64,000 nt of DNA from positions 4,806-68,805 of the forward strand of contig JAFGUB010000015.1 in assembly GCA_016938735.1 (NCBI GenBank). Direction: 5' to 3'. Below, one piece after another: positions 24,759 through 43,591 of this stretch (position 1 is its first letter; each line of letters begins with the position of its first letter). The notes beneath the pieces were generated by a model, which worked only from the letters and a program-made list of their open reading frames with translations, made no database searches and had not been told where the DNA came from. Origin of the DNA: Campylobacterales bacterium (GTDB lineage: Bacteria; Campylobacterota; Campylobacteria; Campylobacterales; Sulfurimonadaceae). Made by a program: the position numbers and the translations under genes.

Positions 24759-25279
24759 GTAACCATCTTTTAGGGGATGCCATCATCACCACACGCCTTG
24801 AGGCGGTGATCGACTGGGGACGTCAAAGCTCGCTTTGGCCGATGGTCTTTGACACGGCGTGCTGCGCCATCGAGTTTATGGCGGCGGCGGCGAGTCGCTA
24901 CGACGTTTCGCGTTTTGGGGCGGAGGTGCTGCGCTTCTCACCCCGCCAGGCCGATCTGCTGCTGGTTGCGGGCACCATCAGCTACAAGCAAGCCCCTATT
25001 TTGAAGATGATCTATGATCAGATGCCCCAGCCCAAATGGGTGATCGCTATGGGCGCGTGCGCTTCTAGCGGCGGCTTTTATGATAACTACACCACGCTTC
25101 AAGGCATTGACGAGATCGTCCCCGTGGATGTTTATATCGCAGGTTGTCCGCCGCGCCCCGAAGCGGTGCTCGATGCCATCGTGAAGATTCAGGAGAGTTT
25201 GTGGAAAGAGAGAGCGTGCGAAGAGCGCCACGCGGGGTTCAAGGGGCGGTTTGATGATGAGGCGCTAACTCAGCTCTAA
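24749..25279 (+). CDS. nuoB: NADH-quinone oxidoreductase subunit B
   Basis: 176 aa. Cluster N2 ligand blocks are [14 protein letters not shown] and GCPPRPE. It overlaps nuoA by 10 nt. Confidence 0.95.
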
Positions 25280-28200
25280 GGCGATCATCTCGGCCTGTTT
25301 GAGCACCGTTTCGGTCGCCAGTGCTTGCATGTCGGGCGGATAGCCGAACTGACGCAGCACCCTTTTGACGGCGATTTTGAGTTTTGCCCGTACGCTCTCT
25401 TTGATCGTCCAGTCGATGCTGGCATTTTCGCGCACCTTTTGGGTGAGCACCACGGCCAGCTCGCGCAGCACCTCTTTGCTCATCAGCTCTTTTGCACTCT
25501 CATTGTTTGCCACTGCCGTGTAAAAAGCGTACTCAAAATCCGTAAGGCCCAACTCACGCGGCTCTTGATCCATAGCCTGAATCTCTTTGCCGAGGTGGAT
25601 CAGCTCATCGATCACTTCCACCGCCGTGATGATTTTGTTGTGGTATCTTTTGATCGAATCTTCCAGCATCTGCATCAGCGATTTGCTTTGCACCAGATTG
25701 GTTTTTGATCTGGTTTTGATCTCGTCGCCCAGCAGTTTTTTGAGCACCTCAAGCGCGATATTTTTATGCTTCATATTTTTGACTTCCAGCAAAAACTCCT
25801 CTGAAAGTATCGAGATATCGGGCTTTTTGATCCCGCTTGCGTCAAAAATATCGATGACCTGCTCGGTGATGAGCGCTTTATCGATCACCTGACGAATCGT
25901 TGTCTCAATCTCTTCATCGCTTCGATCACCTGAGGGCTCAAACTTCACAAGACGCGCCTTGACGGCCTGAAAAAAGGCCACCTCGTCTTTGGCATCCATC
26001 GCCTGATCGTGCGGAATGGCGATGGCAAAGGCGCTTGAGAGCGCGTTTACCTCTTTGATGTACCTTTTTTTGCCCTCTTCGAGCCCTAAAATATGCTCTT
26101 CGGCTTCTAGTATCAGAGATAACTTTCCTCTTGTATCTTGCTCAAAGTAGTGCTCATACGCAAACCCGTGATACATCTGCGCAACGATTTCAAGTTTTTC
26201 CAGCATCAGCGCCACGGCCTTCTCCTGCGCCAGTGCGGGATCACCCCTGCCGCCGCTGTCGCTGTAAAACGAGAGCGCCGTTTTAAGATCGCTTGCAATG
26301 CCCAGATAGTCCACCACCAGCCCGCCCGGCTTGTCGCCATGCACCCGATTGACCCGCGCGATGGCCTGCATGAGGTTGTGCCCGCGCATGGGCTTGTCGA
26401 TGTAGAGCGTGTGCATTGAGGGCGCGTCAAAGCCCGTGAGCCACATATCGCGCACGATCACAAGGCGCAGCGGGTCATGATCGTCTTTCATGCGGCTCGC
26501 CAGGGCGCGTCTTTGCTCTTTGGTGGTGTGGTGTTTGGCCAGCGCCGCACCATCGGCACTGCTTGAGGTCATGATCACCTTGATGACCCCCTGACTCAAA
26601 TCATCGCTATGCCACGCAGGGCGCAGCGCGACAATCTCATCATACAGCGCAACGGCGATGCGGCGGCTCATGGAGACGATCATCCCCTTGCCCGCAAAGA
26701 CCTCCTGACGCAGTTCAAAGTGCGCGACGATATCGGCGGCGACCTCCTTGATGCGGTTGGCACTCCGATGAGGGCTTCTAGGCGCGTCCATTTCGCTTTA
26801 GCCTTCTGGCTCTCGTCTAGCTCCGATAGCTCCTCATCAAGCGCATGTACCAGCTCCTTGCCTTCCGCACTGAGGTTGATCTTTGCCAATCGGCTCTCGT
26901 AGTAGATCTTGACCGTTGCGCCGTCTTCGACCGCTTGGGCGATGTCGTAGATGTCCACATAATCCCCAAAGACCGCAGGCGTGTTGACGTCGCTGCTCTC
27001 AATCGGCGTGCCCGTAAACCCCAGATAGGTAGCATTGGGCAGGGCGTCGCGCAGATATTTGGCAAACCCGTAGGTGATCTCGCCCGTGTTTTTGTCTATT
27101 TTGGCGCGAAATCCGTACTGCGTGCGGTGGGCTTCATCGGCGATCACCACGATGTTGCGCCGATTTGAGAGCCGCTCATAGACGTTGCCCTCTTCAGGGG
27201 CGAACTTTTGAATGGTAGTGAAGATTACGCCGCCGCTTGCGACGCCCAGCTTCTCTTTGAGTTCGCTTCGCGTCTCGATCTGCACGGGTTCTTGTCTGAG
27301 CAGATTGGCGCAGCTTGCGAAGGTCTCAAAAAGCTGATCGTCGAGATCGTTTCTGTCGGTGATGACCAGCACGGTGGGGTTATCCAGCGCCAGAACGATT
27401 TTGCCCGTATAAAAGAGCATCGAAAGCGATTTGCCGCTCCCTTGCGTGTGCCATACGACCCCGCCTTTTTGATCTCCGCCTTCGCCGGCGGCTTTGAGCG
27501 TTCTCTCTACCGCTTTGTTGACGGCGTAGTATTGGTGATAGGCGGCGAGTTTTTTGACCGTCTCGATGGTGACGATGCCGTTTACATCCTCTTTTTTTGA
27601 TTGCTCAAAGACGATAAAACTACGCACCAGATCGAGCAGCACATGGGGCTGGAGCATCCCATTGATCAGGGTCTCTAGCTGCGGCGTCAGTCTGGAAACT
27701 TCGCTCACGCCGTCGCTGCTCTTCCACGCCATGTAGCGGCTAAGCCCCGCGCTGATTGTTCCCGCTTTGGCCTCGCAGCCGTCGCTGATGACACAAAAAG
27801 CGTTGTAGGTAAAGAGTGAGGGAATGAGCGATTTGTAGGTGCCGATCTGCTGGTGCGCGGAGGCGATGGTGGCGTTTTCGCCGGCGGCGTTTTTGAGCTC
27901 CATCACCACCAGCGGCAGACCGTTGACAAAAAGGATGATGTCGGGGCGTTTTTGATGGCCGTTTTCAATCATCGTGAATTGATTGACAACGACAAAATCA
28001 TTGCTATTCACATCGTCAAAATCTACCAGATGCACGATCTCGCCGCGCGTGATCCCCTCGCGCTGCACATCGACCTTGACCCCCTCCACCAAGAGCTTGT
28101 GAAAGGTCTCGTTGTCGCGCAGCAGTTCGCTTGATTTGATGCGCTCAAGTTGCTTGATGGCATCTTGCAGAGCGCTTACATGTAAGGAGGGGTTGATTTT

Positions 28201-28344
28201 TTCCAACGCGCCTAGCAGCCTCTCTTTGAGCAGAACCTCTTCATAGTTTCGCTCAAGATCGGGAGCGTACATGTAAGCGTAACCAAGCTGCTCAAAAAGC
28301 TCGATTGCGTAGAGTTCTATCTCATTTTCGGTGATTTTAGTCAT
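25265..28344 (-). pseudogene. hsdR: Type I restriction enzyme R subunit, split by a frameshift near 26760-26770
   Basis: The N-terminal ORF (26680..28359; likely start MTKITENEIE at 28344) has the DEAH box IADEAHRTQYG. The C-terminal ORF (25265..26791) has helicase motif [10 protein letters not shown]. The frames join as ...TRLEALIG / [13 protein letters not shown] with a 1-nt offset. Confidence 0.85.
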
Positions 28345-29288
28345 TTGTTCACTTCCCAATATCCGGATTTCAGGCTCCCGACTCTCTTGATAGCGCCTTC
28401 GTCTTTGAGCTTTTTGATCACTTTTTTGACCCCTGACTCGCTCATGGAGAGTTTCCCCATGAGCTCATTGATGGTAATGCGGCTGTTGTCTTTCATCAGT
28501 GCCAAAACTTTTTGATCACTTTTATAGTTACTTTTCTGGTCACTTTTGAGCGTATTGGCGATAGACTCCAAAATCATCTCAAGCATAAACTCGATAAACG
28601 GCGTGCTCTCTCCAAGAGCCGTGGACTCTTCTATGGCTTTATAGTACGCTTCTTGATGCTCCCTTACGATGCTTTCGGTCGGTAAAAGTGCAAAAATCGG
28701 ATTGAAGCTATGTAAAATCACACTTTGCCAAAGTCGCCCGATTCGACCGTTGCCGTCACCAAACGGATGAATAAACTCAAACTCATAGTGAAAGATGCAC
28801 GATTTCAAAAGCATATGCTCATCACTCGCTTTGAGCCATGCAAAAAGATCATCCATCAAATCATTTATCCTATTTGGCTGCGGGGCAATATGCGCTCCGA
28901 CGGATACATTGACGCTTCTAAACGTTCCTGCCGTCGTGAGTATCTCGCCCATCAAGATTTTATGTGCAAGCAACAGATCATTTAAGTCATCATACCTATA
29001 CGCTTCGAGTTTATCATAGGCTTTTATTGCGCCGTTGACTTCGGCAAGCTCTTTGAGTGTTCCTAAAACTCTTTTGCCATCCAAAATAGCGGTAATTTTT
29101 TCCTCACCCAGAAAATTACCCTCTATCTCCAAAGTACCCGCTAATGTTTTGATGCGGTTCTTTTTTCGTAGCATCGGGCTTACTTTTGTAGCGCCGCCAA
29201 CTTGAAGCTTGGTAAGTTCTTCACTGATTTGAGTAGAGAGTTTTAATATTTTTGAGGTTATTTTGTAGGGTGGGGTGTAGTTATTCAT
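28341..29288 (-). CDS. Fic family protein with C-terminal winged-helix domain
   Basis: 315 aa with Fic motif HPFGDGNGRIGR. The C-terminal block NSRITINELMGKLSMSESGVKKVIKKLKDEG is MarR-like. Its stop overlaps the hsdR ATG (ATGA). Confidence 0.85.
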   Translation of the reverse strand: MNNYTPPYKITSKILKLSTQISEELTKLQVGGATKVSPMLRKKNRIKTLAGTLEIEGNFLGEEKITAILDGKRVLGTLKELAEVNGAIKAYDKLEAYRYDDLNDLLLAHKILMGEILTTAGTFRSVNVSVGAHIAPQPNRINDLMDDLFAWLKASDEHMLLKSCIFHYEFEFIHPFGDGNGRIGRLWQSVILHSFNPIFALLPTESIVREHQEAYYKAIEESTALGESTPFIEFMLEMILESIANTLKSDQKSNYKSDQKVLALMKDNSRITINELMGKLSMSESGVKKVIKKLKDEGAIKRVGSLKSGYWEVNK

Positions 29289-30163
29289 TTTAGCCTCCCC
29301 AAAACGTCCAAAGCTCCCATCTCAAAGCGTGAAAACGCAAACCACTTTTTACCCAAGTCTTTCAAGCTTGCTCCGATATGGTAAATCTCTTGTTGGTCTA
29401 TGATCAAAAACCTATCATGAGCTTTTTTAAACTCTATGAGTTCTAGGTTTTGGTATTGCGCGCAGTACTTATGATAGTCAAGACGGAGCTGTTTTGAGAT
29501 GGTTTGCGTGTAGATTTTTATCTTTACATGTAAGTATTTGCTAAAGAGGGTAAAAACGGTGTCGTCTATGTAGTTGTCGATGAGCACCACTTCGTTTTTG
29601 GCACCCCCTAACAGCTCATTGACAAAAGCATACGCATCGTAAATCTGCCCGTCGTAGAAGATTCCATGTTTTGGTCGTATTGAGCTGTTTTCAAGGCCAT
29701 TTGAGATGTTTGCTACTTGTGATTTGAGTAGCGATACATCATTTTCTAGCTCTTTAAACCGTTCATGAGTGATTTTTTCGGAGTTGATGACATAGCCGTT
29801 TTGTACATAACTTGCGAGTACTGATGTTGCCCATTTTCTAAACTTTGTGGCGGTTATGGAATTAACTCTATAGCCGATAGAGATAATCATATCGAGGTTG
29901 TAATGCTCCAAGTTTCGCTCAACCATCCTATTACCTTCATTTTGAACTGTCAAGAAAAACTTGATAGTTGCGTCTTTGTCTAACTCATTGTCTTTGTATA
30001 TACGATTGACATGAAGGCTAATGTTTTGTTTTGTCACACCAAACAACTCGCCAAGTTGTTTTTGCGTCAGCCAAATAGTATTGTGGTTCACCGAAACATT
30101 CAGCTCTTGCTCACCGTCATTGTATATGACTACATTATGGCTTGGTATGGTTAGCTCATTCAT
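29285..30163 (-). CDS. RhuM-family protein
   Basis: 292 aa. LTQKQLGELFGVTKQNISLHVNRIY...ISIGYRVNSITATKFRKWAT is the RhuM signature region. It overlaps the Fic gene by 4 nt. Confidence 0.85.
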   Translation of the reverse strand: MNELTIPSHNVVIYNDGEQELNVSVNHNTIWLTQKQLGELFGVTKQNISLHVNRIYKDNELDKDATIKFFLTVQNEGNRMVERNLEHYNLDMIISIGYRVNSITATKFRKWATSVLASYVQNGYVINSEKITHERFKELENDVSLLKSQVANISNGLENSSIRPKHGIFYDGQIYDAYAFVNELLGGAKNEVVLIDNYIDDTVFTLFSKYLHVKIKIYTQTISKQLRLDYHKYCAQYQNLELIEFKKAHDRFLIIDQQEIYHIGASLKDLGKKWFAFSRFEMGALDVLGRLK

Positions 30164-30205
30164 CGCTTGCCTTTGGTTTGGTCATTTTAGGCTACCTTGC
30201 TTTGC

Positions 30206-30237
30206 TTACATGTAACGAAAGAAAAGCTTACATGTAA
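30206..30237. repeat. Two TTACATGTAA copies 22 bp apart (CTTACATGTAAC ... CTTACATGTAAT)
   Basis: Exact 10-mers at 30206-30215 and 30228-30237. They lie in the gap between rhuM and the AT-rich block. Confidence 0.95.
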
Positions 30238-30268
30238 TGCGGGGTTTGAATGATTGGTGGTGGTCATA

Positions 30269-30802
30269 TTATTTCCTGACTCCGTTTTCCTTGTCATCAA
30301 ATAAGCTTCTTTGATGTTCTTCTACCCATTTTTGATATTTTCGTTTTTTTCCAGCTTCTCGAAGTTTCAGTTTCCCGAGCTCTAGTTCTTGTGTTCCAAA
30401 TACTTGTAGCAGTCTATAACTTCTACTTTTCTCATCGCCAAATTCATCAAAAGTAATTTTTATTTCGAGATGGCAATTTATCAATGAACCATTAGAAAAT
30501 TTATGCTTTCCTTCAATAACCTCTTGTTTGAATTTTGAATCCGCCATACTAAAATCAATTTTTTCATTTTTGTATCTACCTCTCCAGTTATATTTCCCCT
30601 CTTTCAAAACTGGTGAAATTATTTCTATCATGGCATCGTCATCTTCTGACATAGTTGTGTCATCATGCAAAATAAAGCTTTTAAAATCTTTTCTCTCAAC
30701 TATATATTCATCTGCATCATCCTCTAAACTTCTATACCCTATCTTTTCTACTTTTTCATAAGCATCAATTTTTTTGTAAAAGTTTGAAATATATTTTTGC
30801 AC
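30269..30802 (-). CDS. Hypothetical protein (177 aa), very low GC
   Basis: Clean ORF in the AT-rich block downstream of the RloC-like gene. Lys/Glu-rich. No family recognised. Confidence 0.5.
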   Translation of the reverse strand: MQKYISNFYKKIDAYEKVEKIGYRSLEDDADEYIVERKDFKSFILHDDTTMSEDDDAMIEIISPVLKEGKYNWRGRYKNEKIDFSMADSKFKQEVIEGKHKFSNGSLINCHLEIKITFDEFGDEKSRSYRLLQVFGTQELELGKLKLREAGKKRKYQKWVEEHQRSLFDDKENGVRK

Positions 30803-30835
30803 GAGTTTATCATTGAGCTTTTTCTCTATTTGTTC

Positions 30836-31192
30836 TTATAGCTCTAAAGTTTTTTGTTGATTGTCTAACTCTAAATTTTGAAGTGTTGCTTCTTTGATTT
30901 TTTTATCTAAGGCTTCTGCTTGAGTATTTCTAGTAGCATAGTGAGTGATAATATCATTCAAAGCAGGTGATAAATAATGCAATGTAGGCAATACAATAGC
31001 CAATATTTCAATTAATCCGCCCTCTTGATAAGCTTCCGTTTCGATTTTTAACTCACTGTCTAAAAGCTCACCTATCCTTTTGACTGCTTCAAGAAAATCT
31101 TTTTCAGCCTTATTTCTCACAAAAGCATTCATAGCATGTGAGTTATCTTTTAGGTAATAATGAAGTTCAAATTTTTGAGTTAAGTTATTCAT
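30836..31192 (-). CDS. Hypothetical helical protein (118 aa), very low GC
   Basis: The start MNNLTQ at 31192 overlaps the RloC-like stop by 8 nt (ATGAATAA). The C-terminus is predicted helical/coiled. No family recognised. Confidence 0.5.
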   Translation of the reverse strand: MNNLTQKFELHYYLKDNSHAMNAFVRNKAEKDFLEAVKRIGELLDSELKIETEAYQEGGLIEILAIVLPTLHYLSPALNDIITHYATRNTQAEALDKKIKEATLQNLELDNQQKTLEL

Positions 31193-33380
31193 TAATAACT
31201 CCAATTTCAATATTCATCATTTTATTAAAATGTTTGATATTGCCTGATTCTTCAAAAATTTGTTTAAATGCTTCTTTAAATAAACTTACATCTATTTCTT
31301 TAACATCTGATATATTTATTTGGTCAGAATGAGACTCTCTATCAATGTATCTTAAAAAAGCACCGTATTTTATAGAATCAAGTTTATTTACTGATTCTTT
31401 CATCTTTTCATTGTCAATAAATCCAAAAAAATTCTCAAGTATATTTCGCATTGCATTTGCCAAAATATTGTCATGAGCGTTTCCATTTTCATGGTCTTTG
31501 AGTATTTTCCAATAAGCCTGATAATCATTTTGTATTTCATCTTGTAGCATTTCTAAAATTAAAGAAGATTTATCATTGCCTCTAACTATTCTAAAAAGCT
31601 TTTTATCCTTTTTATTGTGTATCTTACAAAGCTCATGAAAAAAATACATGCTATGAGTTAGTACAAAAACTTGTAAATAATTTTGACTTTCAAAAAATTC
31701 TTTTTTTGTAAGTTGTGCAACATTAAAAATATAATTATGCGATAAGCTTGATATTGGATCATCTATTACAACAATTTTATTTTTAATCTCTTCTGTTTCG
31801 CTTTCTTTTCCTTTGCAAAGTTCCACAAAGTAAAGAAAGCTTATTATCATTTTTTCACCTTCGCTTAACGATTTAAATTCTGGTTTACTTTCATTCTCCC
31901 TTACAATTCTGTAAAACTTATCTTCAAAAGGCTTTATCTCAAAACCATGCAACCCAAGCAAGGCTAATTGATAGTTAATTAATTCTATAACTTTTTCAAT
32001 ATTGATTGTTTTATCTTGATTTTCTTTGATAACATCTCTTTGAGCTTTTATATCATCTTTGATTTTTTGAAGTGCTAAATTTACCTTTGCTTCTTCTTTT
32101 TCTAAATCTTTTAAATCTTTTTCATATGACGAAATATGTACATCGTACTCCCATCTCATTATTTCCCAAAATTCTTTCTTTATAATCTCTTTAACATTTT
32201 TTTTATTTTTTATTTTTTCATTATGCTGCGTCATTTCTTGATTGATTTTTTCTACAAGTTCATTAAAGTTTTTCAATGCTTGACTAGAACCTTGAAGAGT
32301 CACTTTATTGCTTGGAAGTTTTATTTTATTGTCGATTGCAGTTATATTTTGAGATAAAACTGTAAGCAGTTTTGTATGTAAGCTTTCAAGTTCTATTTTT
32401 ACAGCATTTACATAATCATTTACTAAAAATGAGTCTATAGATGGAATATTATTTTTGATTGTCTCATATTTAGATTTTATTCCTTTCAATAAATTAATCT
32501 TATCCTCGTAAGTTTTATCAAAGTAGTTTTTTATCTCATCAGCTAAATTTTTTGTAACAGTTTCTTGTTGACAAAATGGGCAACTTGTGGCTTCATTTAT
32601 CTCATCTGGTAAATAGCCTAGACCCAGTTTTACCCAATCAGAATTTTGAAATTTTTCTATTAAACTTGCAACTGTACTATCTTTATTTCCTACAATAACT
32701 TCATCAAAAATACTGTTGTTTTCAAGTTCAATTACGCCACTTAAAACAATTTTTTGGAGAGGGTCTAAACTAATAGCATCATCACCTTCAATTTTTGAAA
32801 TCTCTTTTTTTAAATCATCTGTTGTTTTTGTAGGTTTAGTCAATGGCTTTACTAATGATTTAATATGATTAAATAGTGCATCTTTACTGCCTTTAACACC
32901 TTCTAAACAATAATCTAAAATTCTATCTCCACCGCTAAAGGTTGTTTTTATATTCCATATTTTTTCAGTCGCTTCTGACAATTTCTTTTTTTTCTTGCCA
33001 TTAGCTCCGTTTATTTCGTCTAGTTCTATTTTTTTTGCTTTTTCTTGAGTTTCTAATTTGTCAATTTCAGCTTTTGCATTTTTTACATTTTCTTCTGCTG
33101 TAACATTTGGCTCTGATATTGTAAAAACACCTTTTAAATCTTCTTTTTCATAAAAGTTTTCATTAATAAATTCTTGATTGTACACCAGTATTTTTGCTGT
33201 TTCTCCACCAGAAATTGAACAATCATTAAATTTACTATTGTTTTTATTTTTTAAAAAGTTTGATAAAGTTGTTTTTCCTGTTCCGTTTAGTCCATAAACA
33301 AGGTTTATTTTTTTATCTGTATTGAGTGTTCTTTCGCTTCTATAACTAGCGACATTTTTTAGTTTTATTAAAGTAATCAT
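31185..33380 (-). CDS. RloC/PrrC-like ABC-type ATPase (AAA_13 architecture), putative anticodon nuclease
   Basis: 731 aa with Walker A GLNGTGKTT and a long Lys/Glu-rich coiled-coil insert carrying CPFCQQ (zinc-hook-like CxxC). ABC signature SLSEGEK, Walker B IVVIDDPISSLS and H-loop VLTHS follow. The C-terminal R-x3-E (RNILENF) plus ESHSD resemble the PrrC nuclease triad. The gene is embedded in an hsd locus. Confidence 0.7.
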   Translation of the reverse strand: MITLIKLKNVASYRSERTLNTDKKINLVYGLNGTGKTTLSNFLKNKNNSKFNDCSISGGETAKILVYNQEFINENFYEKEDLKGVFTISEPNVTAEENVKNAKAEIDKLETQEKAKKIELDEINGANGKKKKKLSEATEKIWNIKTTFSGGDRILDYCLEGVKGSKDALFNHIKSLVKPLTKPTKTTDDLKKEISKIEGDDAISLDPLQKIVLSGVIELENNSIFDEVIVGNKDSTVASLIEKFQNSDWVKLGLGYLPDEINEATSCPFCQQETVTKNLADEIKNYFDKTYEDKINLLKGIKSKYETIKNNIPSIDSFLVNDYVNAVKIELESLHTKLLTVLSQNITAIDNKIKLPSNKVTLQGSSQALKNFNELVEKINQEMTQHNEKIKNKKNVKEIIKKEFWEIMRWEYDVHISSYEKDLKDLEKEEAKVNLALQKIKDDIKAQRDVIKENQDKTINIEKVIELINYQLALLGLHGFEIKPFEDKFYRIVRENESKPEFKSLSEGEKMIISFLYFVELCKGKESETEEIKNKIVVIDDPISSLSHNYIFNVAQLTKKEFFESQNYLQVFVLTHSMYFFHELCKIHNKKDKKLFRIVRGNDKSSLILEMLQDEIQNDYQAYWKILKDHENGNAHDNILANAMRNILENFFGFIDNEKMKESVNKLDSIKYGAFLRYIDRESHSDQINISDVKEIDVSLFKEAFKQIFEESGNIKHFNKMMNIEIGVINE

Positions 33381-34552
33381 ATCTCCACCCTTGCTTCCCC
33401 ACTCAACAGCTTTGGCAAGAGTGTATCTCGCAAGTTTTCAAGGGTTTGGATTTGTTTCGTATTGCTTTCTATTTTTGTGAAATATGGTTTCATCTCTTCT
33501 TCAAATTCCTTTACTGTTTTTTCATTCGGTAGAGTGATATTGTGTTCTTGGAATGTCTTTGTAGTAATAGTATCAAAAACACTGCCGTATGCAGCGGCTT
33601 GGAGCTCTTCCACTGAGTGTGAAATCAAAAGATATGTGAAAAAATAGCAGTCCTTAAATTTCGGCAAAACACCATAATTTGACTGGCTAAACGCCATAGG
33701 CTCCGCGAGTAAGCAATATTTCCCCACTGTTCCTCTAGCACTAATCACTGTGGCATATTTTGGTAAAAGCTTTGCCGAACTTTTTTCTAATCCCGTCTGT
33801 GTAATTGTTTTTTCTGTTTTGTGAATAAAACCTTTGTGATGCGAAGATATATCTCCTCCTGCCAACCATCCAATGCTCCCATCCCAATATTCCGCAACCG
33901 TAGTTTTTGGTGTACCCCCACCAACAAGAATAATGCTATCAAAAAGGCTTTGATCCTCCCACTCCTCTTTTGCTTCTTCGATAAACCATTGTCTAAAAAG
34001 CGTTTGGGCGAGGGATTCTAGGGTGTGGTTTTGGCGATGGAGAAGGTCTATCTTATCATCGAGGCTACTTAATACTTCTGCTATTGCTTTTTGTTCTTCA
34101 AGAGGTGGAAGGGAAATATCAATTTCATCAAATGTTGTTCTTGTTATGGTGTCAAATACTCCACCGTGAGATATTTGTATTAATTGATTTACTGTATCTT
34201 TTAAAAGGTAAAAAATATAATCATTTGTAGATTCATTTTCTTTTGCTCTAACTCCGTAACAAGATTGATTAAAAGTCATAGGTTTATCAAGCATTGCTAA
34301 AGCTCCAACAGTTCCACGAGCTGAAATGATTATGTCATTTTCTTGAAGTAGTTTTGTACTACTGTTTTTAAGTCCTTCTTCTGTTATAGTTTTTTCAGTT
34401 TTTGAAACATATTTTTTGCCAGTGTTAAAATCTACAACTGAAAGCCAAGGGATATCTCCATTCCAATATTCAGAAATAGCAGTTTTAGGAGTTCCACCTC
34501 CAATAATTTCTATTACCTCCCCCAACTTACACTCTCTCCAACTACTCATCAC
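33377..34552 (-). CDS. hsdS: Type I restriction-modification specificity subunit
   Basis: 391 aa. It has two target-recognition halves, each with GGGTPKT...ISARGTVG blocks, separated by conserved helical spacers. Confidence 0.85.
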   Translation of the reverse strand: MMSSWRECKLGEVIEIIGGGTPKTAISEYWNGDIPWLSVVDFNTGKKYVSKTEKTITEEGLKNSSTKLLQENDIIISARGTVGALAMLDKPMTFNQSCYGVRAKENESTNDYIFYLLKDTVNQLIQISHGGVFDTITRTTFDEIDISLPPLEEQKAIAEVLSSLDDKIDLLHRQNHTLESLAQTLFRQWFIEEAKEEWEDQSLFDSIILVGGGTPKTTVAEYWDGSIGWLAGGDISSHHKGFIHKTEKTITQTGLEKSSAKLLPKYATVISARGTVGKYCLLAEPMAFSQSNYGVLPKFKDCYFFTYLLISHSVEELQAAAYGSVFDTITTKTFQEHNITLPNEKTVKEFEEEMKPYFTKIESNTKQIQTLENLRDTLLPKLLSGEARVEI

Positions 34553-35234
34553 TCACCGCCTTTCTCACCCGCTCCATCAGCCCGAAGCTCTGCTCTTCTA
34601 GTAGTGAAAATGCAAACCACTTTTTGCCAAGGTCTTTGAGGGTTGATTCGTCGATATAGTTGTCTATAAGAACGATTGAACTTTTGGCTTTTTTGACAAG
34701 CTCACTCACGAGTGCATACGCATCAAAAATCTGCCCGTCGAAAAAGACGCCCTGTTTGGGGGTGGTGGATCTATTTTCAAGTGCATTTAGCACCGATTCT
34801 AGCTTTTGATTGGTCTGTTTTTGGTCTAGTTCAAGTTTTTCTACTCTTTGAAAAAGTGAAGCGTTCTGGAGGAGGTACTTGCGCATCTTGACGAAACTGT
34901 TGATGATATTGATGCTGGTTTGGATTGCCGTATCGCTTCGCAAGACTGCCGAGAGCATAGATACGCCTTGTTCGGTGAAGACATAAGGCAAAGCTGACGA
35001 ATGCTTGAGAGGTTGCAACCGGTCGCAATTTGCGACCAGTTCATTTTTTTCACTTTCATTTAACTGAAATCTAAACTCCTCGGGGAATCTCTCAATATTT
35101 CTTTTGACCTGTTCACCAAGTCTTTTTGGCTCCACACCGTACAGCTCCGCCAAATCTCTATCGATCATTACTTGCACACCGCGAATCGTAAAGATTTTGT
35201 GTTCGATGTTTTGCTGTATGCTCATTTCACTCAT
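34542..35234 (-). CDS. ORF6N (KilA-N-like) domain protein with truncated RhuM-type C-terminal module
   Basis: From MSEMSIQQNIEHKIFTIRGVQVMIDRDLAELYGVEPKRLGEQVKRN (ORF6N signature). The C-terminus matches the RhuM paralog tail but carries an internal deletion. Confidence 0.7.
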   Translation of the reverse strand: MSEMSIQQNIEHKIFTIRGVQVMIDRDLAELYGVEPKRLGEQVKRNIERFPEEFRFQLNESEKNELVANCDRLQPLKHSSALPYVFTEQGVSMLSAVLRSDTAIQTSINIINSFVKMRKYLLQNASLFQRVEKLELDQKQTNQKLESVLNALENRSTTPKQGVFFDGQIFDAYALVSELVKKAKSSIVLIDNYIDESTLKDLGKKWFAFSLLEEQSFGLMERVRKAVSDE

Positions 35235-36306
35235 CACCCACCCCCTCAAAATCATCTTCTAATTCCGCTTCTATTTGTTCCATGCTAGGAAGTGAGGATT
35301 GATACTCTTTGGGCAAGATCTCCATGAGTTCATATTCACTGACGCCTAAAGGCTTGTTGACATCTTTGAGCGCATACTCTACCACTACATTGTTTTTTGA
35401 TTTACAGATAAGTATGCCTATGGTCGGGTTGTCATTTTGATCTTTTAGCTCACCGTCGATTGCGCTCGTATAAAAGCTCAATTTTCCGGCAAACTCAAGC
35501 TTAAACTCACTCACTTTTAGCTCTACCACTACATAACATTTGAGCTTGATGTGATAAAAAAGCAAATCGATCCTAAACTCATCACCGCCAACGACAAGCT
35601 TATATTGTCTGCCGACAAAGGCAAATCCACTTCCAAGCTCTAGTAAAAACTTTGTAATGTTCTCTGTCAAAGCGTTTTCCAGCTCTCTCTCTTGATAGCC
35701 TTGCGTGAGGGTCAAGAAATCAAAGTTATAGGGATCTTTTGTGATCTCTTTTGCCAAGTCCGATTGAAGCGGTGGAAGTGTAGCCTCAAAGTTTGTGATA
35801 GCTTTGCCCTCTCTGGCGTAAAGATTTGTCTCTATTTGATGAATGAGCACATTTCTGCTGATACCGTTTTTGATGGTGTTTTGCACATAATAGAGAGCTT
35901 CTTGGGTGCTTTTGCACTTTTGGATGATGGCGATATTGTGCCCCCAAGGGATTTGTAAAACTTGCGAAACAACTTGTTTCGTATTTGTAACTTCCATTTG
36001 CGAAACAACTTGTTTCCAAAATAGATACCACTTTCTGATCAACTCTAAATTTCTTTTTGAAAACCCTTTTATATCTGGAAACTCTGCACTTAAGTCCTTG
36101 CTTAGTTGTTGCAAAAATCCGCTTCCCCAAGTGCTACTTTTTTGCTTTTCTACTATTTTACTTCCAAGATTCCAATAAAACTCCAGTAAAGCGCTATTTA
36201 TCTGTATGGAGGCTTTTATTTGCGAGCTTTGAAACCTTTGTTTTATCTCATTTAGCCACTCTTTATATTCTGTATTCAAAGAATTTTGAAGTTGTGTATT
36301 ACTCAT
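35227..36306 (-). CDS. YhcG/DUF1016-family PD-(D/E)XK nuclease-like protein
   Basis: From MSNTQLQ at 36306. The C-terminal block FRIDLLFYHIKLKCYVVVELKV has the D...ExK pattern. Confidence 0.75.
   Translation of the reverse strand: MSNTQLQNSLNTEYKEWLNEIKQRFQSSQIKASIQINSALLEFYWNLGSKIVEKQKSSTWGSGFLQQLSKDLSAEFPDIKGFSKRNLELIRKWYLFWKQVVSQMEVTNTKQVVSQVLQIPWGHNIAIIQKCKSTQEALYYVQNTIKNGISRNVLIHQIETNLYAREGKAITNFEATLPPLQSDLAKEITKDPYNFDFLTLTQGYQERELENALTENITKFLLELGSGFAFVGRQYKLVVGGDEFRIDLLFYHIKLKCYVVVELKVSEFKLEFAGKLSFYTSAIDGELKDQNDNPTIGILICKSKNNVVVEYALKDVNKPLGVSEYELMEILPKEYQSSLPSMEQIEAELEDDFEGVGDE
35962..36016. repeat. In-frame 36-bp tandem duplication carrying two GAAACAA-C-TTGTTTC hairpin-capable units
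   Basis: TTGCGAAACAACTTGTTTC occurs at 35962-35980 and again at 35998-36016. In the protein it encodes QVVSQ...QVVSQ. Confidence 0.8.
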
Positions 36307-37300
36307 CACCCACCGCCTCAAGGAGTCTTTGAAACTCTTCTTTGTTGGGCAGTACGGTGAGATATTTGCTGGCAAATATTTGGTTGTTGTCTCGTGGAAG
36401 GGTCATCTCTACAAGGGCTTTACTTTTGTCTTTGCACAAGATAATGCCCACCGTCGGGGCTTCGTCCTCTTGTTTTTCGACGCGGTCAAAGTAGTTGACA
36501 TACATCATCATCTGCCCGATGTCTTGATGTTTGAGTTCACCGATTTTGAGGTCTATGAGGACAAAACAATGCAAAAGGCGATTGTAAAATACCAAATCCA
36601 CCGCAAAGTGCTTTTCATCGATAGTAAGGCGTTTTTGTCTGGCGACAAAAGTAAAGCCTTTGCCAAGCTCCAGCAAAAATGCCTCTAGCTTATCGATGAG
36701 CTTTTGTTCTAAGTCGCTCTCAGAGTAGCTTGATAGCACGGGAAGTCCCACAAATTCGAGTATGTACGGGTCTTTTATGAGGTCTTGCACGGTTTCGATG
36801 ATATGCCCTTTTTGCGAAAGCTCTTTGACTTTTGTTTTGTCGATACTCAGGCTTAGCCGCTCATACAGCCCTGTGTCAAACTGCCTTTTGAGCTCTTTGA
36901 GCGTCCAGCCATTTTGTGCAGATTCTACCTCATAAAAATTTCGCTCATCTTCGCCGGTTATGCGAGACAAAAAGATGTAGTGGGAGTAGCTGAGGCTAAA
37001 TTGGTGAGACGCCGTCTCACTTTTTGAATAAGCCAAATAAAACCGTCTCATATTTTTGAGGTTATCTATTGAAAATCCACTGCCAAACTCCCTTGTAAGC
37101 TCATGTGAGAGATTTTTGATCAGCCCTTTGCCATACTCCGCCCTAGCTTCTCCGCCCTGCTCCTCTTCAACAATGCGCCGTCCTATCTCCCAGTAGGTTT
37201 GGGTCATGGTGGTATTGATGGTTTGGTAGATGCTGTTTCTGGCTTTTTGGAGAAGCTCTTTGATATCCGATACAAAATGGGTGTTTGAAAGATTACTCAT
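36299..37300 (-). CDS. YhcG/DUF1016-family PD-(D/E)XK nuclease-like protein
   Basis: 333 aa with N-terminal [30 protein letters not shown]...[14 protein letters not shown] and C-terminal [26 protein letters not shown]. Confidence 0.8.
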
Positions 37301-38813
37301 CCCCCACCGCCAAATTCACCTTCGCCAAATTTGCCAAAATACGCTCATTGAGCGCTTGTTCTTCCCTCATCTGCTCTTGAAGCGTTACATGTAAAGACTC
37401 AAACCGCTCTTTGAAATCAAACTCATCTTCCACATCTTCAAGCCCCACGTAGCGCCCGGGCGTGAGTACATAGTTAAGCTCTCGCACCTCTTGAAGGCTT
37501 GCGCTTTTGCAAAAGCCTTTGATGTCCTCATAGCGCACACTTTTGACCTTCCACTCATGATAGGTCTGCGCGATTTTGTCGGTATCTTTGGGGCTTAGCT
37601 CTTTAGTGCGGCGGTTGATGAGATGGCCCAGATTGCGCGCATCGATGAAGAGTATATCTTGCGTGGTGCGTCCGCGTTTCATAAACCAGAGCGAAGCGGG
37701 AATCTGGGTGTTGAGAAAGAGCTTTGCGGGCAGGTTCACGATGCAGTCAACAAGATTGGCCTCAATCAGCGCCTTGCGGATCTCCCCTTCGCCGCTGGTG
37801 TTGCTCGTGAGGCTCCCTTTTGCCAGAACAAACCCCGCCGTGCCTGTGGGTGCGAGGTGATACAAAAAGTGCTGTATCCACGCATAGTTGGCGTTGCCCG
37901 CAGGCGGTGCGCCGTATTGCCATCGGCCATCACTGCGCAGCAGCTCGCCGCTCCAGTCAGAGACGTTAAAGGGCGGATTGGCGATGATGAAGTCCGCTTT
38001 GAGGTCTTTGTGGGCATCGCTTAAAAATGAGCCTTCGTTGTTCCATTTAACCTGGCTAGAGTCGATGCCGCGAATGGCAAGGTTCATGCGGGCCAGCCGC
38101 CATGTGGTCTGGTTGGACTCTTGGCCGTAGATGGAGATGTCGTTGATGCGCCCTTGATGCTCCAGCACAAACTTTTCGCTCTGCACAAACATCCCGCCGC
38201 TGCCGCAACAGGGGTCAAACACGCGCCCCTTGTAAGGTTCTAGCATCTTCACCAGCAGTTCTACAACGCTTTTGGGCGTGTAAAACTGACCGCCCTGTTT
38301 GCCCTCGGCCAGCGCAAATTCACCCAGAAAATACTCAAACACATGCCCCAGCACATCAGCGCTGCGCGCTTTGGCATCACCCAGCGCGATATTGCCGATC
38401 AGATCGATCAGCCCGCCAAGCGCCTTGGCATCAAGATTGTCGCGGGCGTAGACCTTGGGCAGCACCCCTTTGAGCGTCGCGTTTTCACGCTCGATGGCGT
38501 CCATCGCTTCATCAACGAGCTTGCCGATGTGGGGGAGCTTGGCGCTGCCTTGCAGGGTGCTCCAGCGCGCGTTTTGCGGCACAAAAAAGACGTTTTCGGC
38601 GGCGTATTCGTCTTTGTCTTCGGGGTCGGCACCCTGATCAATCTGTGAGCGCAGCGTTACATGTAAAGCTTCAAAACTATCAGAGATGTATTTAAGAAAA
38701 ACCAGCCCCAGCACGACATGCTTGTATTCGGCGGCGTCGATGTTTTTGCGCAGCTTGTCGGCGGCTTTCCAAAGGGCGGTTTCAAGGGATTCTAGCGAAG
38801 CGGATTTGGCCAT
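37293..38813 (-). CDS. hsdM: Type I restriction-modification methyltransferase subunit
   Basis: From [22 protein letters not shown] (ATG at 38813). SAM motif DPCCGSGGM and catalytic NPPFN are present. The track ORF extension to 39017 crosses the promoter repeat and the nuoC start and is rejected. Confidence 0.9.
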
Positions 38814-38886
38814 AAGAGATGTTTCCGTGTGTGTTTTTGAAGCATAGATTGTAGCCAAAAGTTGATCCCCACACCTTGAAATCCAT

Positions 38887-38944
38887 TCGTCGCGGCTTTT
38901 GGGTATGATAGTGGCAATTTTTACCGACAAAGAGACGACGTGCC
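38887..38944 (+). promoter_or_regulatory. Copy B of the nuoA promoter/leader module, placed in front of nuoC
   Basis: TCGTCGCGGCTTTTGGGTATGATA has 1 mismatch to copy A, with TATGAT at 38904-38909. AAAGAGACGACGTGCC is exact. The GTG at 38940 opens an 11-codon remnant, [11 protein letters not shown], whose TGA overlaps the nuoC ATG (ATGA). Confidence 0.45.
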
Positions 38945-38971
38945 CCAAAATCTCCCGATACGGATTGATGG

Positions 38972-39208
38972 ATGAGTGAAGTACCCTACAGCGATCTTTT
39001 TGCCCACGCACAGTCACTCAAAAGCGAAGGCTACACCCTCCTACTCGACATCGTAGGCATCGATTACCTCTACCTGCCGCGCAAAGAAGCCAAGCGTTTT
39101 GGGGTGATCTACCATCTGCGCCATGGGGATTTCGACCGTGTGGTTTCTTTACATGTAAGCGTGAACGAAGATGAGCCGATAAGTAGCCTGTCCCCTTTAT
39201 TTAGATAA
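38972..39208 (+). pseudogene. nuoC: nuoC 5' fragment, terminated by a TAA created inside a tandem duplication
   Basis: The 78 codons encode a NuoC-like N-terminus (LLLDIVGIDYL...YHL). The stop at 39206-39208 lies in the duplicated copy of GATAAGTAGCC... Confidence 0.75.
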
Positions 39209-39241
39209 GTAGCCTGTCCCCTTTATTTGTCCCCTTTATTT
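39178..39241 (+). repeat. Nested tandem duplication (25 nt + A + 25 nt + 13 nt) inside nuoC
   Basis: GATAAGTAGCCTGTCCCCTTTATTT occurs at 39178-39202 and 39204-39228, followed by GTCCCCTTTATTT at 39229-39241. The net insertion is 39 nt, which is in frame. Confidence 0.9.
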
Positions 39242-40624
39242 GAGAGTGCGGATTGGTTGGAGCGGGAGGTGTTTGATCAGTTTGGGCTGCGTTTTAGCGG
39301 CCATCCCAACCTCAAACGTGTGCTCAACCATGAGGAGTTTATCGGCCATCCGCTGCGCAAAGATTATGCCATTACCAAAGGCCAATACTGCACCCAGACT
39401 CAGGATTTGATGGATGAGATGGCGCCGCTGCTTACATGTAAGCATCTGGATATGGAGCGTGACAACCTTATGCTGCTCAACCTCGGCCCCTCACACCCCG
39501 CCAGCCACGGCACGCTGCGCACCCTTGTGGCGCTTGACGGCGAAGAGATCAAGGCGGGGGTGAGCGAGATCGGCTATCTGCACCGGGGCTTTGAGAAGTC
39601 GTGCGAAAACCACACCTATAACCAGATCGTCCCCTACACCGACCGGCTCAACTACTGCTCGGCGCTCATGAACAACATCGGTTTTTGCAAGGCGGTAGAG
39701 GAGATGATGGGCATCAAGCTGCCGGATCGTGGGATCTTTATCCGTGTGATCCTAAGTGAGCTTTCGCGCATTATCGACCACCTCGTCTGCCTCGCGGCGG
39801 GGCTGCTGGATATGGGGGCGCAGACCAACTACTGGTACCTCTTCAACCCGCGCGGGCTGGCCTATGACTTTCTCAGCCGCCTTACGGGGGCGCGGCTCAC
39901 CAACTCTTTTATGCGCATCGGCGGCATGGCGCACGATCTGCACGCGGGGTGGGAAGCGGAGCTAGAAAGCGTGCTGCGCTCGGTCGAGAGTGGCGTGGAT
40001 GAGAGCCTGCGCATGAGTGAGCACAACCGCATTTTTATCGACCGAACCCAAAATGTCTCGTGTGTGAGTGGGGAGCGGGCAGTGAACATGGGCTGGAGCG
40101 GCCCCAATCTACGTGCGTGCGGCGTCGCGTACGATCTACGTTTTGCCGCGCCTTATGACTACTACGACACCTTTGATTTTTCGATGGTCGTAGGCTCTTC
40201 GGGGGACACCTATGATCGGCTGATGGTGCGCTTTGAAGAGATCAAAGAGAGCCTCAGCATCATTCGTCAGGCCATAAAACGCATCCCTCAAGGAGCGGTC
40301 AGCGTTGCCGATCACGCCGTGACGCTGCCTAGCAAAAGCGCCGTTTATGGCACGATTGAAGGGGCGATGAATCAGTTTAAACTTATCTTCGAGGGGGTCA
40401 AAGTGCCCAAAGGAACCCACTACGGCGCCACCGAAGCGGCCAACGGCGAGCTGGGATTTACCATCATCAGTGATGGCAGCGGCACGCCCTACCGCGTGAA
40501 AGTCCGTGCGCCCAGTTTCATCCACATGGCAAGCTACCCCAAGATCATCGAAGGAAGCCAAATCGGCGATGCTATTTTGACACTTGGAAGCCTCAATATC
40601 ATTGCCGGGGAGATGGATCGATAA
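39227..40624 (+). CDS. nuoD: NuoC C-terminal part fused to NuoD (NuoCD), downstream of the duplication
   Basis: The 465-aa ORF uses TTG in the track. [18 protein letters not shown] is the NuoC core. After a linker, [14 protein letters not shown] onward is full-length NuoD. Confidence 0.85.
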
Positions 40625-41094: not shown

Positions 41095-42329
41095 GAGACG
41101 CACGTATCGTCAGCCGCCGCTTTGAGCTTCCCCAAAGCCACACCCTCGAAGTGGCTCGTGCGCACGGAGCCTATACGCGACTAAGCGAGGCCTTCGATAA
41201 AACCCCTTCCGAGCTGATCGAGATCATCGATCAAAGCGGCCTGCGCGGCAAAGGGGGCGGGGGTGCCGGTGCGGGGGAGAAGTGGAAACTGATGCTGCCA
41301 CACGATCCTCGCCCCAAATACCTCGCGGTCAACTGCGACGAATCGGAACCCGGCACCTTCAAAGACCGTCAAATCATCACCAAAGATCCCCATCTGCTGA
41401 TTGAGGGGATCATCCTCACCTGCTACGCGATTGGGGCGCGCGCGGCTTATATCTACATTCGCGGCGAATACCGTGCGCATCAGCAGATTTTGCAAGCCGC
41501 GATTGATGAAGCCGAAGCGGCGGGGCTCTTACATGTAAAGGGTGCGCCGCTCCTCATCACCGTCCATCGCGGCGCGGGGGCTTACATCTGCGGCGAAAAA
41601 TCGGCGCTGCTCGAATCCATGGAGGGCAAACGGGGCCATCCGCGCCTCAAGCCCAAACAAAAAGAGTGCGAGTGGTATTTTGGCAACCCCACGCTGGTCA
41701 ACAACGTCGAAACCATCGCGTCCGTCCCCTTCATCCTCTATGAAGGTGCAGCGGCGTACCGCAGCTTCGGTACGGAAAAAAGCCCCGGCACCCTGCTCTT
41801 TGCCCTAAGCGGCCACGTGCAGCGCCCCGGCGTCTATGAGGCGGAGTTTGGCACCTCGATGATGGCGTACATTGAGCACTTCGGCGGCGGCATACGCAAA
41901 GGCAAAAAGCTCAAAGCGGTGATCCCCGGCGGCGCTTCGACGGCGGTGCTCACGGCGCAGGAAGCTCTTGAAGCGTGTCTGGATTATGAGAGTATGCAGA
42001 GCTTGTATAGCGCACTGGGCACGGGCGGTATGATCGTGATGGATGAGGATACCGATATGGTCTTGGCACTCAAAAACCTGCTGGAGTTTTACCGCCACGA
42101 GAGCTGCGGACAGTGTACGCCCTGTCGTGAGGGCACGGGGCTGGCCGATACCCTGCTATCGCGCGTGCTGGAGGGGCACGGCAACACTGGCGATATCGAC
42201 AAACTGCTCGAACTCGCCTCCACGATGGATGGTCAAACCATCTGCGTCTTCGCTCCGGCGGTCGCCATCGTGATTCGCGGCTTTTTGCTCAAGTTTAGAA
42301 GCGAATTTGAAGCGAGGATGCACGCATGA
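41091..42329 (+). CDS. nuoF: NADH-quinone oxidoreductase subunit F
   Basis: 412 aa with the GLRGKGGGGAG FMN/NADH site and the ESCGQCTPCREG 4Fe-4S site. Confidence 0.95.
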   Translation: MRDARIVSRRFELPQSHTLEVARAHGAYTRLSEAFDKTPSELIEIIDQSGLRGKGGGGAGAGEKWKLMLPHDPRPKYLAVNCDESEPGTFKDRQIITKDPHLLIEGIILTCYAIGARAAYIYIRGEYRAHQQILQAAIDEAEAAGLLHVKGAPLLITVHRGAGAYICGEKSALLESMEGKRGHPRLKPKQKECEWYFGNPTLVNNVETIASVPFILYEGAAAYRSFGTEKSPGTLLFALSGHVQRPGVYEAEFGTSMMAYIEHFGGGIRKGKKLKAVIPGGASTAVLTAQEALEACLDYESMQSLYSALGTGGMIVMDEDTDMVLALKNLLEFYRHESCGQCTPCREGTGLADTLLSRVLEGHGNTGDIDKLLELASTMDGQTICVFAPAVAIVIRGFLLKFRSEFEARMHA

Positions 42330-43591
42330 TCGAGATTTTTGTGAACGATCAGAGCTTACATGTAAACGAAGGAGTGCTGCTGATCGAAGCACTGATTCAA
42401 AACCGCATCGACATCCCCTACTTTTGCTACCACGAAGCGCTGGGGATGGATGGGAATTGCCGCATGTGCATGGTGGGCATCGAAGGGCAAAAACGCCCGC
42501 AAATCGCCTGCGACACCATCGTCAAAGCGGGGATGCGGGTGCACACTACGGGGGAGCGCATCGAAGATGTACGGCGGCGGATTTTGGAGCTCGAACTCGT
42601 CAACCACCCCGTCGATTGCCCCATCTGCGATCAGGCGGGCGAGTGCAAGCTGCAGGACTTTTATATGGATTACGGGCTTTATGATAGTGCCGTGAGCAAG
42701 GGTGAAAAAGTGCACGGTGCCAAACACGTCGATCTGGGCGCTAACGTCATGCTCGATCAGGAGCGCTGCGTGCTCTGCGCACGCTGCACGCGCTTTACAT
42801 GTAACATCACCAAAACCCATGAGCTGGGCATCATCGGACGGGGCGATCACGCCCGCATCAGCACCATGCCGGGCCGTAAGCTCTCCAACCCCTACGCCAT
42901 GAACGTGGTCGATCTCTGCCCCGTGGGGGCGCTCACAAGCAAAGATTTTCGCTTCGCCCAGCGTGTCTGGTTTCTTAGCTCCACCCCTTCGGTCTGTCAC
43001 AGCTGCGCGAAGGGGTGCAATATCTTCATCGATCACAACGCCCCCAAATACCAAAAAGAGCGCATCTACCGCTTCCGCCCTCGCCGCAACGACGCGGTGA
43101 ATGGACATTTTATCTGCGACGCGGGACGGCTGAGCTACAAAAGCTTAAACGACCACCGCCTTACATGTAACAACCCTGACGCAATGGATCGTGCCAAAGC
43201 GCTCATCCAAGCAGCGCACAATATCGCGCTGCTCGTCGATGCCAACCTCTACTGTGAGCAGCTCGACGCGCTGGTCGCTTTTGCGCAGCGCATCGGCGCA
43301 CAGCTCTACTGCCCCAACCAATGCTACTACGATGAGGGCTTCGGCGATGAGTGGCTCAGACGCCCTTGGCGCGCGGCCAATCTGGCCCATATCAACACGC
43401 TAGGCATCACACAAAGCACGCCAAGCGAAGCGCACGATCTGATCATCAGCTTCAACCACCCTGACCTAAGTAGCCTTACATGTAAGCATAAAATCGCCTT
43501 CTCGACCCATGAGGGCGTAGAAGCCGACGTGGTTTTGGCGCTGCGCTCATGGGCGGAGGAGGCGGGAACGCTGATCAATATCACGGCATAG
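42326..43591 (+). CDS. nuoG: NADH-quinone oxidoreductase subunit G (short form)
   Basis: 421 aa with CYHEALGMDGNCRMC, HPVDCPICDQAGEC, CVLCARCTRF and CPVGALT Fe-S blocks. The molybdopterin-like part is strongly shortened. A 3' frameshift is possible (see findings). Confidence 0.85.
   Translation: MIEIFVNDQSLHVNEGVLLIEALIQNRIDIPYFCYHEALGMDGNCRMCMVGIEGQKRPQIACDTIVKAGMRVHTTGERIEDVRRRILELELVNHPVDCPICDQAGECKLQDFYMDYGLYDSAVSKGEKVHGAKHVDLGANVMLDQERCVLCARCTRFTCNITKTHELGIIGRGDHARISTMPGRKLSNPYAMNVVDLCPVGALTSKDFRFAQRVWFLSSTPSVCHSCAKGCNIFIDHNAPKYQKERIYRFRPRRNDAVNGHFICDAGRLSYKSLNDHRLTCNNPDAMDRAKALIQAAHNIALLVDANLYCEQLDALVAFAQRIGAQLYCPNQCYYDEGFGDEWLRRPWRAANLAHINTLGITQSTPSEAHDLIISFNHPDLSSLTCKHKIAFSTHEGVEADVVLALRSWAEEAGTLINITA

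Follow-up and report, generated by a model that had tools for sequence, protein, structure and literature searches.

The nuoC part of a fused nuoCD gene, in a Campylobacterota genome from a freshwater metagenome, contains 39 inserted nucleotides that are in frame overall yet bring an internal TAA into the gene. The insertion is made of copies of a 25-nt unit, and this unit fits a terminal inverted repeat (TIR) of the TIRYT type, i.e., a TIRtron end belonging to the IS200-like Y1 HUH family. We estimate a probability of roughly 65% that a domesticated, intragenic transposon-end repeat was amplified locally and recently knocked out nuoCD. All coordinates refer to the window, meaning the whole 64-kb stretch of DNA that was analyzed.

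The nuoC array and its reading frame

As shown in Table 1, the site consists of two exact copies of the unit separated by a single A and followed by a partial third copy. The preliminary description of this DNA had reported a nested 39-nt repeat, a full unit and then a partial unit, and the sequence reads exactly so. Tandem Repeats Finder assigned the site a period of 26 nt (2.0 copies, 100%) with a score of 102, the highest in the window, and also a period of 13 nt (2.2 copies, 100%, score 56). The 22-mer AAGTAGCCTGTCCCCTTTATTT occurs at two places only in the 64-kb window, in units 1 and 2, where the chance expectation is none. The 26-nt period is off by one base, with A39203 facing G39229, and because the period fails at its last base, the sequence is not obtainable by a single clean slippage event. 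Its structure may be read either as two 25-nt copies with an untemplated A between them or as a 26-nt duplication that later underwent a G-to-A change. Direct copies of GTCCCCTTTATTT are located at 39190, 39216, and 39229. Since the first and third of these are 39 nt apart, an exact one-step reversion by deletion is possible.

Table 1. Coordinates of the open reading frames and repeat features at the nuoC site.
Feature	Position	Strand	Remarks
5' nuoC fragment (NuoC part of fused nuoCD), 78 aa, ending ...SPLFR-TAA	38972-39208	+	ORF list; tblastn with L202 NuoCD begins at 38972
Unit 1, GATAAGTAGCCTGTCCCCTTTATTT, 25 nt	39178-39202	+	Resident in-frame TIR copy coding (P)ISSLSPLF, in place of conserved NuoC IPSITSLF
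13-nt core GTAGCCTGTCCCC of unit 1	39183-39195	+	Complement GGGGACAGGCTAC includes GGGGWSAS
Single A between units	39203	+	Without template in flanks; interrupts 26-nt period (G at 39229)
Unit 2, exact repeat of unit 1	39204-39228	+	nuoC-specific 5' GAT included
In-frame TAA made by insertion	39206-39208	+	AGA codon directly before
13-nt core GTAGCCTGTCCCC of unit 2	39209-39221	+	Sequence match
Downstream ORF, TTG start, 465 aa, NuoC C-terminal part and entire NuoD	39227-40624	+	ORF list
Partial third unit GTCCCCTTTATTT, outer end of repeat, 13 nt	39229-39241	+	GAGAGT next

Read from the ATG at 38972, the frame ends in CCT TTA TTT AGA TAA, in which AGA is a rare Arg codon here (5 of the 185 Arg codons in nuo genes). 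The in-frame stop claimed earlier was thereby confirmed, as was the division of NuoC into a 78-aa fragment and a TTG-started protein comprising the NuoC C-terminal part and NuoD. The TTG restart had been described as lacking a ribosome binding site, and indeed no Shine-Dalgarno sequence precedes TTG 39227. Gene callers begin the downstream ORF instead at a GTG near 39269, giving a 451-aa product (P0002) with PF00329 and PF00346. Deleting 39203-39241 in silico, the removal that had been predicted to restore NuoC, yields a 537-aa fused NuoC-NuoD with a gapless alignment to homologues. Identity of the restored protein is 84% to the best homologue (P0001) and 67-80% to the next ~118 among the matches listed. 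All of the NuoCD homologues listed have both Complex1_30kDa and Complex1_49kDa, and those that are named are Campylobacterota. The presence of PF00329 and PF00346 in the homologues and in P0002, together with the nuoA-N operon context, identifies the gene as a NuoC/NuoD fusion. In an annotation, this locus shows a truncated 451-465-aa "NuoD", and metabolic reconstructions would miss the break or miscount a working complex I.

The same sequence is found outside of the window's own assembly. Every sampled 31-mer of the region is present in run X1, a freshwater metagenome. The Logan assembly of X1, which was built with k=31 independently of the window's assembly, contains an 8,999-nt contig (depth 16.3) matching 38600-39900 with 0 differences and 0 gaps. 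A k=31 path through the site requires words that join nuoC-specific flanks to inserted bases, as well as words that span A39203 and G39229. Because 31-mers span both of these bases, the two duplications reside on the same molecules. No alternative joint at the insertion was present among X1 contigs, although Logan contigs drop rare variants. Assembled contigs being the only source, a minority intact allele could exist in the population. A search with the junction region alone as query found no further sequencing runs.

The insertion was absent from relatives. None of 119 NuoCD homologues has the extra 13 codons, and the segment preceding the conserved W-x-ERE is equal in length in all 119. A relative in run X2, a wastewater metagenome, is represented by a 208-nt contig in which ~3% of aligned bases differ. 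This contig has unit 1 in single copy followed by GAAGCG GCGGATTGG, its frame is intact, and it reads LFEAADW. It lacks 39203-39247 and has 6 replacement bases instead, making it exactly 39 nt shorter. Given its absence from the homologues and from the X2 relative, the insertion is a derived state of the X1 strain.

The remainder of the operon is well preserved. The neighbors of nuoCD include nuoE, F, G, H, I, J, K, L, M, and N, with nuoA and nuoB located 13.7 kb upstream. Compared with the closest relative (L202), all other nuo genes align essentially end to end, with full-length alignments for nuoA, B, E, F, H, I, J, K, L, and M, and the sole difference is that nuoG is ~34 residues shorter. 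The lesion looks recent because the operon is otherwise free of decay. We infer that the most likely consequence is a recent loss of function of the complex I operon. The case resembles the ordinary disruption of a gene at a repeat that is unstable.

Several other features of this DNA were recorded. The nuoG gene (42326-43591) encodes 421 aa compared with 455-458 aa in the closest relatives, with the alignment spanning residues 1-427 of 455, and it is separated from nuoH by a 67-nt gap where these genes overlap in relatives. The short nuoG represents either a C-terminal truncation or natural variation. A low-GC island of ~13.7 kb lies between nuoB and nuoC (25259-38960; nuoB ends at 25279 and nuoC starts at 38972), in contrast to every relative examined, in which nuoB overlaps nuoCD by 8 nt. 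Its position means that the nuo operon is interrupted twice in this genome. GC content is 36-42% in the island versus 56-57% in nuo genes. The island carries hsdM, hsdS, and hsdR of a type I restriction-modification system, as well as genes for Fic, RhuM-like, and DUF1016-like proteins and a 731-aa ATPase. At its edges is an imperfect direct repeat, CGGTTTGATGATGAG (~25244) and CGGATTGATGGATGAG (~38957), and both bordering ORFs are intact. Two overlapping minus-strand ORFs of 559 and 508 aa (25265-26791 and 26680-28359) make up hsdR, which was apparently split by a frameshift away from any obvious homopolymer. The restriction subunit is probably inactive, and both hsdM and hsdS are intact.

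Farther downstream, the hexanucleotide CCACCT is repeated 6.5 times without imperfection at 60143-60181, within a minus-strand ORF (59311-60264). It codes for a poly-glycine linker just past the lipobox cysteine of a predicted lipoprotein. The frame would be kept at any copy number, and the length of this repeat could vary. A promoter scan of 38600-39400 returned no sigma-70-like site. Rfam at gathering thresholds had no match in the window and ARAGORN detected no tRNA, such that an RNA gene does not explain the nuoC site. Coverage at the nuoC site was zero in the metatranscriptome of the same study.

Identity and distribution of the unit

We scanned public collections for the 20-mer GTAGCCTGTCCCCTTTATTT by exact matching, so the true diversity is larger than reported here. 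Exact matches were found at 81 or more loci in species-representative genomes and at more than 120 metagenome loci, amounting to more than 195 distinct loci in more than ten phyla. Hosts include Omnitrophota, Elusimicrobia, Myxococcota, Aminicenantes, Nitrospirota, Eubacteriales, Scalindua, and many Campylobacterota, with a single isolate among them, Desulfoscipio geothermicus DSM 3669 (L041). Across 195 distinct instances, conservation is limited to ~24 nt, comprising an A-rich stretch, GTAGCCTGTCCCC, and a T-rich stretch, and the flanks vary on both sides. We rejected the possibility that the 20-mer is the end of one large conserved element, as nothing beyond ~24 nt is conserved in either direction. 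An origin from a sequencing adapter or spike-in was also rejected on account of the many flanks, the natural variants, the linkage to a transposase, and the isolate genome.

The commonest gene beside the repeat encodes an IS200-like Y1 transposase, which was present at 21 loci at a median distance of 55 nt. Its products are ~220-330 aa and match Pfam Y1_Tnp with E-values of 1e-11 to 1e-19. In at least 14 of the 21 loci, the Y1 gene is bracketed by GGGGACAGGCTAC on the left and GTAGCCTGTCCCC on the right, which makes these sequences terminal inverted repeats. TIRtrons have been defined as TIRYT genes flanked by TIRs with the motif GGGGWSAS, and the TIR families are found singly, as dimers, and in clusters (Di Nocera et al. 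2013, PMC3733652). TIRYT elements were later placed in subclass 2.1, with the GGGGWSAS consensus quoted (Quentin et al. 2018, PMC6006769). The nuoC units contain this motif, as the complement of both 39188-39195 and 39214-39221 is GGGGACAG. The unit therefore fits a TIRYT-type TIR.

With NCBIfam REP_Tyr_transpos (NF047646), the associated protein scored 66.2 bits against a cut-off of 80 and is thus not a RAYT equivalog by that model. In four members searched against Pfam at E ≤ 0.1, only Y1_Tnp was detected and the C-terminal HTH domains (Bac_DnaA_C, HTH_23, and HTH_28) were not, although the C-terminal parts are conserved among members without a Pfam assignment. The Y1 transposases beside the shared 20-mer (L001-L201) have only ~27-37% identity to a reference member. 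By this measure, the transposon end is unusually strongly conserved relative to its enzyme.

Within the 64-kb window, tblastn found no TIRYT/Y1 transposase gene, and no further copies of the repeat exist besides those at 39183 and 39209. Other genomes are multi-copy, with at least 8 copies in MAG SKS1.bin123. The present genome is a putative host of the element family. Among 200 repeat-bearing loci there were no matches to the nuoC flanks, which places the source genome and its close kin outside of those 200 loci. The exact 20-mer was not found in viral contigs, and in the literature the core sequence had no matches other than unrelated human and rat primers. One locus (L035, MAG contig JAJZPL010000059.1, ~10-23) opens with GCTCTTCCGATCT, which is the 3' terminus of an Illumina adapter, and the repeat comes directly after it. 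The start of that locus is untrimmed adapter at a contig end.

The nested form recurs elsewhere in the family. An inverted partner lies within 120 nt in 67 of the 195 instances and a direct tandem copy within 60 nt in 7, and 12-18 instances (~6-9%) are directly followed by a trailing partial copy of the outer end, 12-16 nt in length and ending in CCCCTTTATTT. The 5' part of the repeat is almost never repeated among these instances, and the breakpoints of partial copies cluster at CC/T/G/TCCCC. At a locus in a Nitratifractor MAG (L003), the sequence is identical to 39207-39241, a unit plus the 13-mer, at 35 of 35 positions. As the form of a full unit and then a partial one recurs, it is a property of the repeat family rather than a private scar. 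The earlier view of a native nuoC unit bearing a private slippage or repair scar is not supported, because the unit is a copy of a widespread TIR whose form recurs at unrelated loci.

Unit 1 also bears the marks of the repeat. Its codons ATA AGT AGC CTG TCC CCT TTA TTT are identical to the repeat at 24 of 24 nt, compared with 7-12 of 24 in five homologues. Just upstream of unit 1, the gene has one codon fewer than close homologues. We rejected chance likeness of native nuoC codons to the repeat, since homologues with SITPLF match at only 11-12 of 24 nt at the DNA level. Judged by this identity, unit 1 itself is derived from the element, and both the X1 and X2 strains carry it. Another in-frame case was observed in an Elusimicrobiales MAG (L060, JAQTOU010000004.1, ~1790-1860), in which an inverted doublet lies within a glycerate kinase gene. 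The doublet adds ~19 codons (IKGDGLLFSRKKSSLSPLFK), and Pfam Gly_kinase is still matched over the whole domain at 355 bits.

Formation of the array and alternative explanations

The order of events that we infer would begin in an ancestor shared by the X1 and X2 strains, where a solo TIR would have taken the place of about nine native codons and supplied eight similar ones in frame. The substitution of ISSLSPLF for IPSITSLF would have been tolerated. In the X1 strain, one more full copy would have been added locally in a 26-nt step that took along the nuoC-specific GAT. A 13-nt partial copy of the outer end would also have been added, for a total of +39 nt, and one base change would be required besides the 26-nt and 13-nt steps. 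The 26-nt step would shift the internal phase to AGA TAA, causing a premature stop after residue 78. The mechanism would most likely be misalignment (slippage or template switching) on the repeat while the DNA was being replicated or repaired. We favor local misalignment because unit 2 contains a copy of the nuoC-specific GAT, whereas the repeat elsewhere usually has AAAA or ATAAA as its 5' flank. However, A39203 argues against simple one-step slippage, and the sequence requires either a more complex templated event or two or more duplications together with a point change.

It is also conceivable, though in our assessment unlikely, that a transposase made the array. Specifically, a TIRYT (Y1 HUH) enzyme of the genome may have cleaved and religated single-stranded DNA at the repeat already in place, or may have inserted an adjoining copy. 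Y1 enzymes have been proposed to generate REP/TIR dimers and arrays (PMC3733652). Also in favor are the directionality of trailing partial copies toward the outer 3' end, their clustered breakpoints, and the identical 35-nt stretch of unit and 13-mer at the unrelated Nitratifractor locus. Yet the C-rich and T-rich end of the repeat could favor slippage equally well, and activity of the family is putative. The presence of GAT in unit 2, where the usual flank would be AAAA, points to local copying, and the Y1 transposase gene is absent from the window.

If the array instead expanded and contracted, possibly through a TIRYT Y1 enzyme acting on single-stranded DNA, it could toggle complex I as a reversible switch. 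The three direct copies of GTCCCCTTTATTT would permit exact one-step removal of the 39 nt, the remaining operon is intact, and copy number at the site is 1 versus 2.5 in two related strains. Those two alleles, however, come from different samples and from sequences differing at ~3% of aligned bases, and heterogeneity within the sample was not seen in X1 contigs, which hide rare variants. The forward event would need several steps, a point change among them, and the unit is far longer and its copies far fewer than in known contingency repeats. A switch is highly improbable on balance. If true, the array would represent a contingency locus of mobile-element origin within a core respiratory gene of a Campylobacterota population.

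The repeat is abundant in the X1 sample, raising the question of whether the array could be an assembly artefact. Many other X1 contigs with unrelated AT-rich flanks match 39181-39241. Tandem copies with a 24-nt period occur in a 921-nt contig, at a word depth of ~7,833, and in several AT-rich contigs at 22-31x. These contigs probably represent a collapsed repeat that is present in many copies in a different, AT-rich organism of the sample. An artefact would require that such abundant DNA tangled the assembly graph at the shared 22-mer while the true nuoC genome, at only ~16x, has a single unit. The abundant contigs nevertheless differ at the unit junction, where they lack G39204 and T39206, and consequently they cannot supply the 31-mers linking nuoC flanks to the insert. 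Moreover, two independent assemblies agree base for base, which answers the earlier concern about an assembly error and leaves it with a very slight chance. Least credible is that the gene still works, either as a split NuoC/NuoCD of 78 aa and 465 aa or by a ribosome hop from UUU 39200 to UUU 39239, despite matched UUA UUU take-off and landing codons flanking the insert, a rare AGA and then UAA after take-off, and intact nuo genes elsewhere, because a split NuoC has no known precedent, the TTG lacks a Shine-Dalgarno sequence, the stop is one codon from take-off rather than adjacent, and the predicted fold of 39160-39270 is no better than that of shuffles (z +1.27), a result that also speaks against a bypass or attenuator hairpin and makes hopping very unlikely.

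Comparison with known repeat systems

The repeat family resembles TIRtrons in having GGGGWSAS within its 13-nt core, in its inverted repeats around a Y1 gene at related loci, and in occurring as single copies, inverted dimers, and clusters. The nuoC copy differs from TIRtrons in being an in-frame solo end in a conserved respiratory gene, with no transposase nearby, and in having been tandemly amplified with a partial copy. An exact 20-mer shared across phyla beside ~27-37% identical proteins is a pattern not described in PMC3733652 or PMC6006769. This shared 20-mer may hold broader interest than the nuoC lesion itself does. It also offers a defined DNA substrate for biochemistry on TIRYT enzymes, the activity of which is putative.

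Parallels extend to the REP/RAYT systems of E. coli and Pseudomonas, which likewise link short repeats to a Y1 HUH transposase that is domesticated or IS-like. As in REPs, GTAG starts the core (39183-39186 and 39209-39212), and at other loci inverted doublets form hairpins followed by T runs. In contrast, the nuoC unit is not a palindrome and has no self-complementarity, with hairpins arising only from doublets elsewhere, and the associated Y1 protein falls below the REP_Tyr_transpos cut-off. The nuoC copy is intragenic where canonical REPs are extragenic. Furthermore, its repeat is common to several phyla, whereas REPs are usually species-specific.

Tandem duplications that cause loss of function can revert by RecA-independent deletion between short direct repeats. 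The nuoC array shares with them the direct repeats flanking extra DNA, and exact excision would restore nuoC. It differs in that the unit comes from a mobile element and in that more than one step was needed. The likeness to the bypass in T4 gene 60 does not hold, as the UUU match results incidentally from the duplication, the stop is one codon off, and a structure is not predicted.

In-frame intragenic repeats are known from Rickettsia RPEs and from intragenic REPs (reviewed in PMC3733652). Like these, the nuoC repeat is a short mobile repeat that was tolerated in frame, as exemplified by unit 1 and by the glycerate kinase doublet. Unlike these, the nuoC copy was later amplified and a stop was introduced, an outcome not described in PMC3733652 or PMC6006769. 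Two points are new, the residence of such a TIR within nuoC and the secondary amplification that made it an array with a stop; the mechanism is not new. A TIR would have become coding sequence of a conserved respiratory subunit and then made the gene a mutational hot spot, which renders nuoC a concrete example of such repeats shaping gene content.
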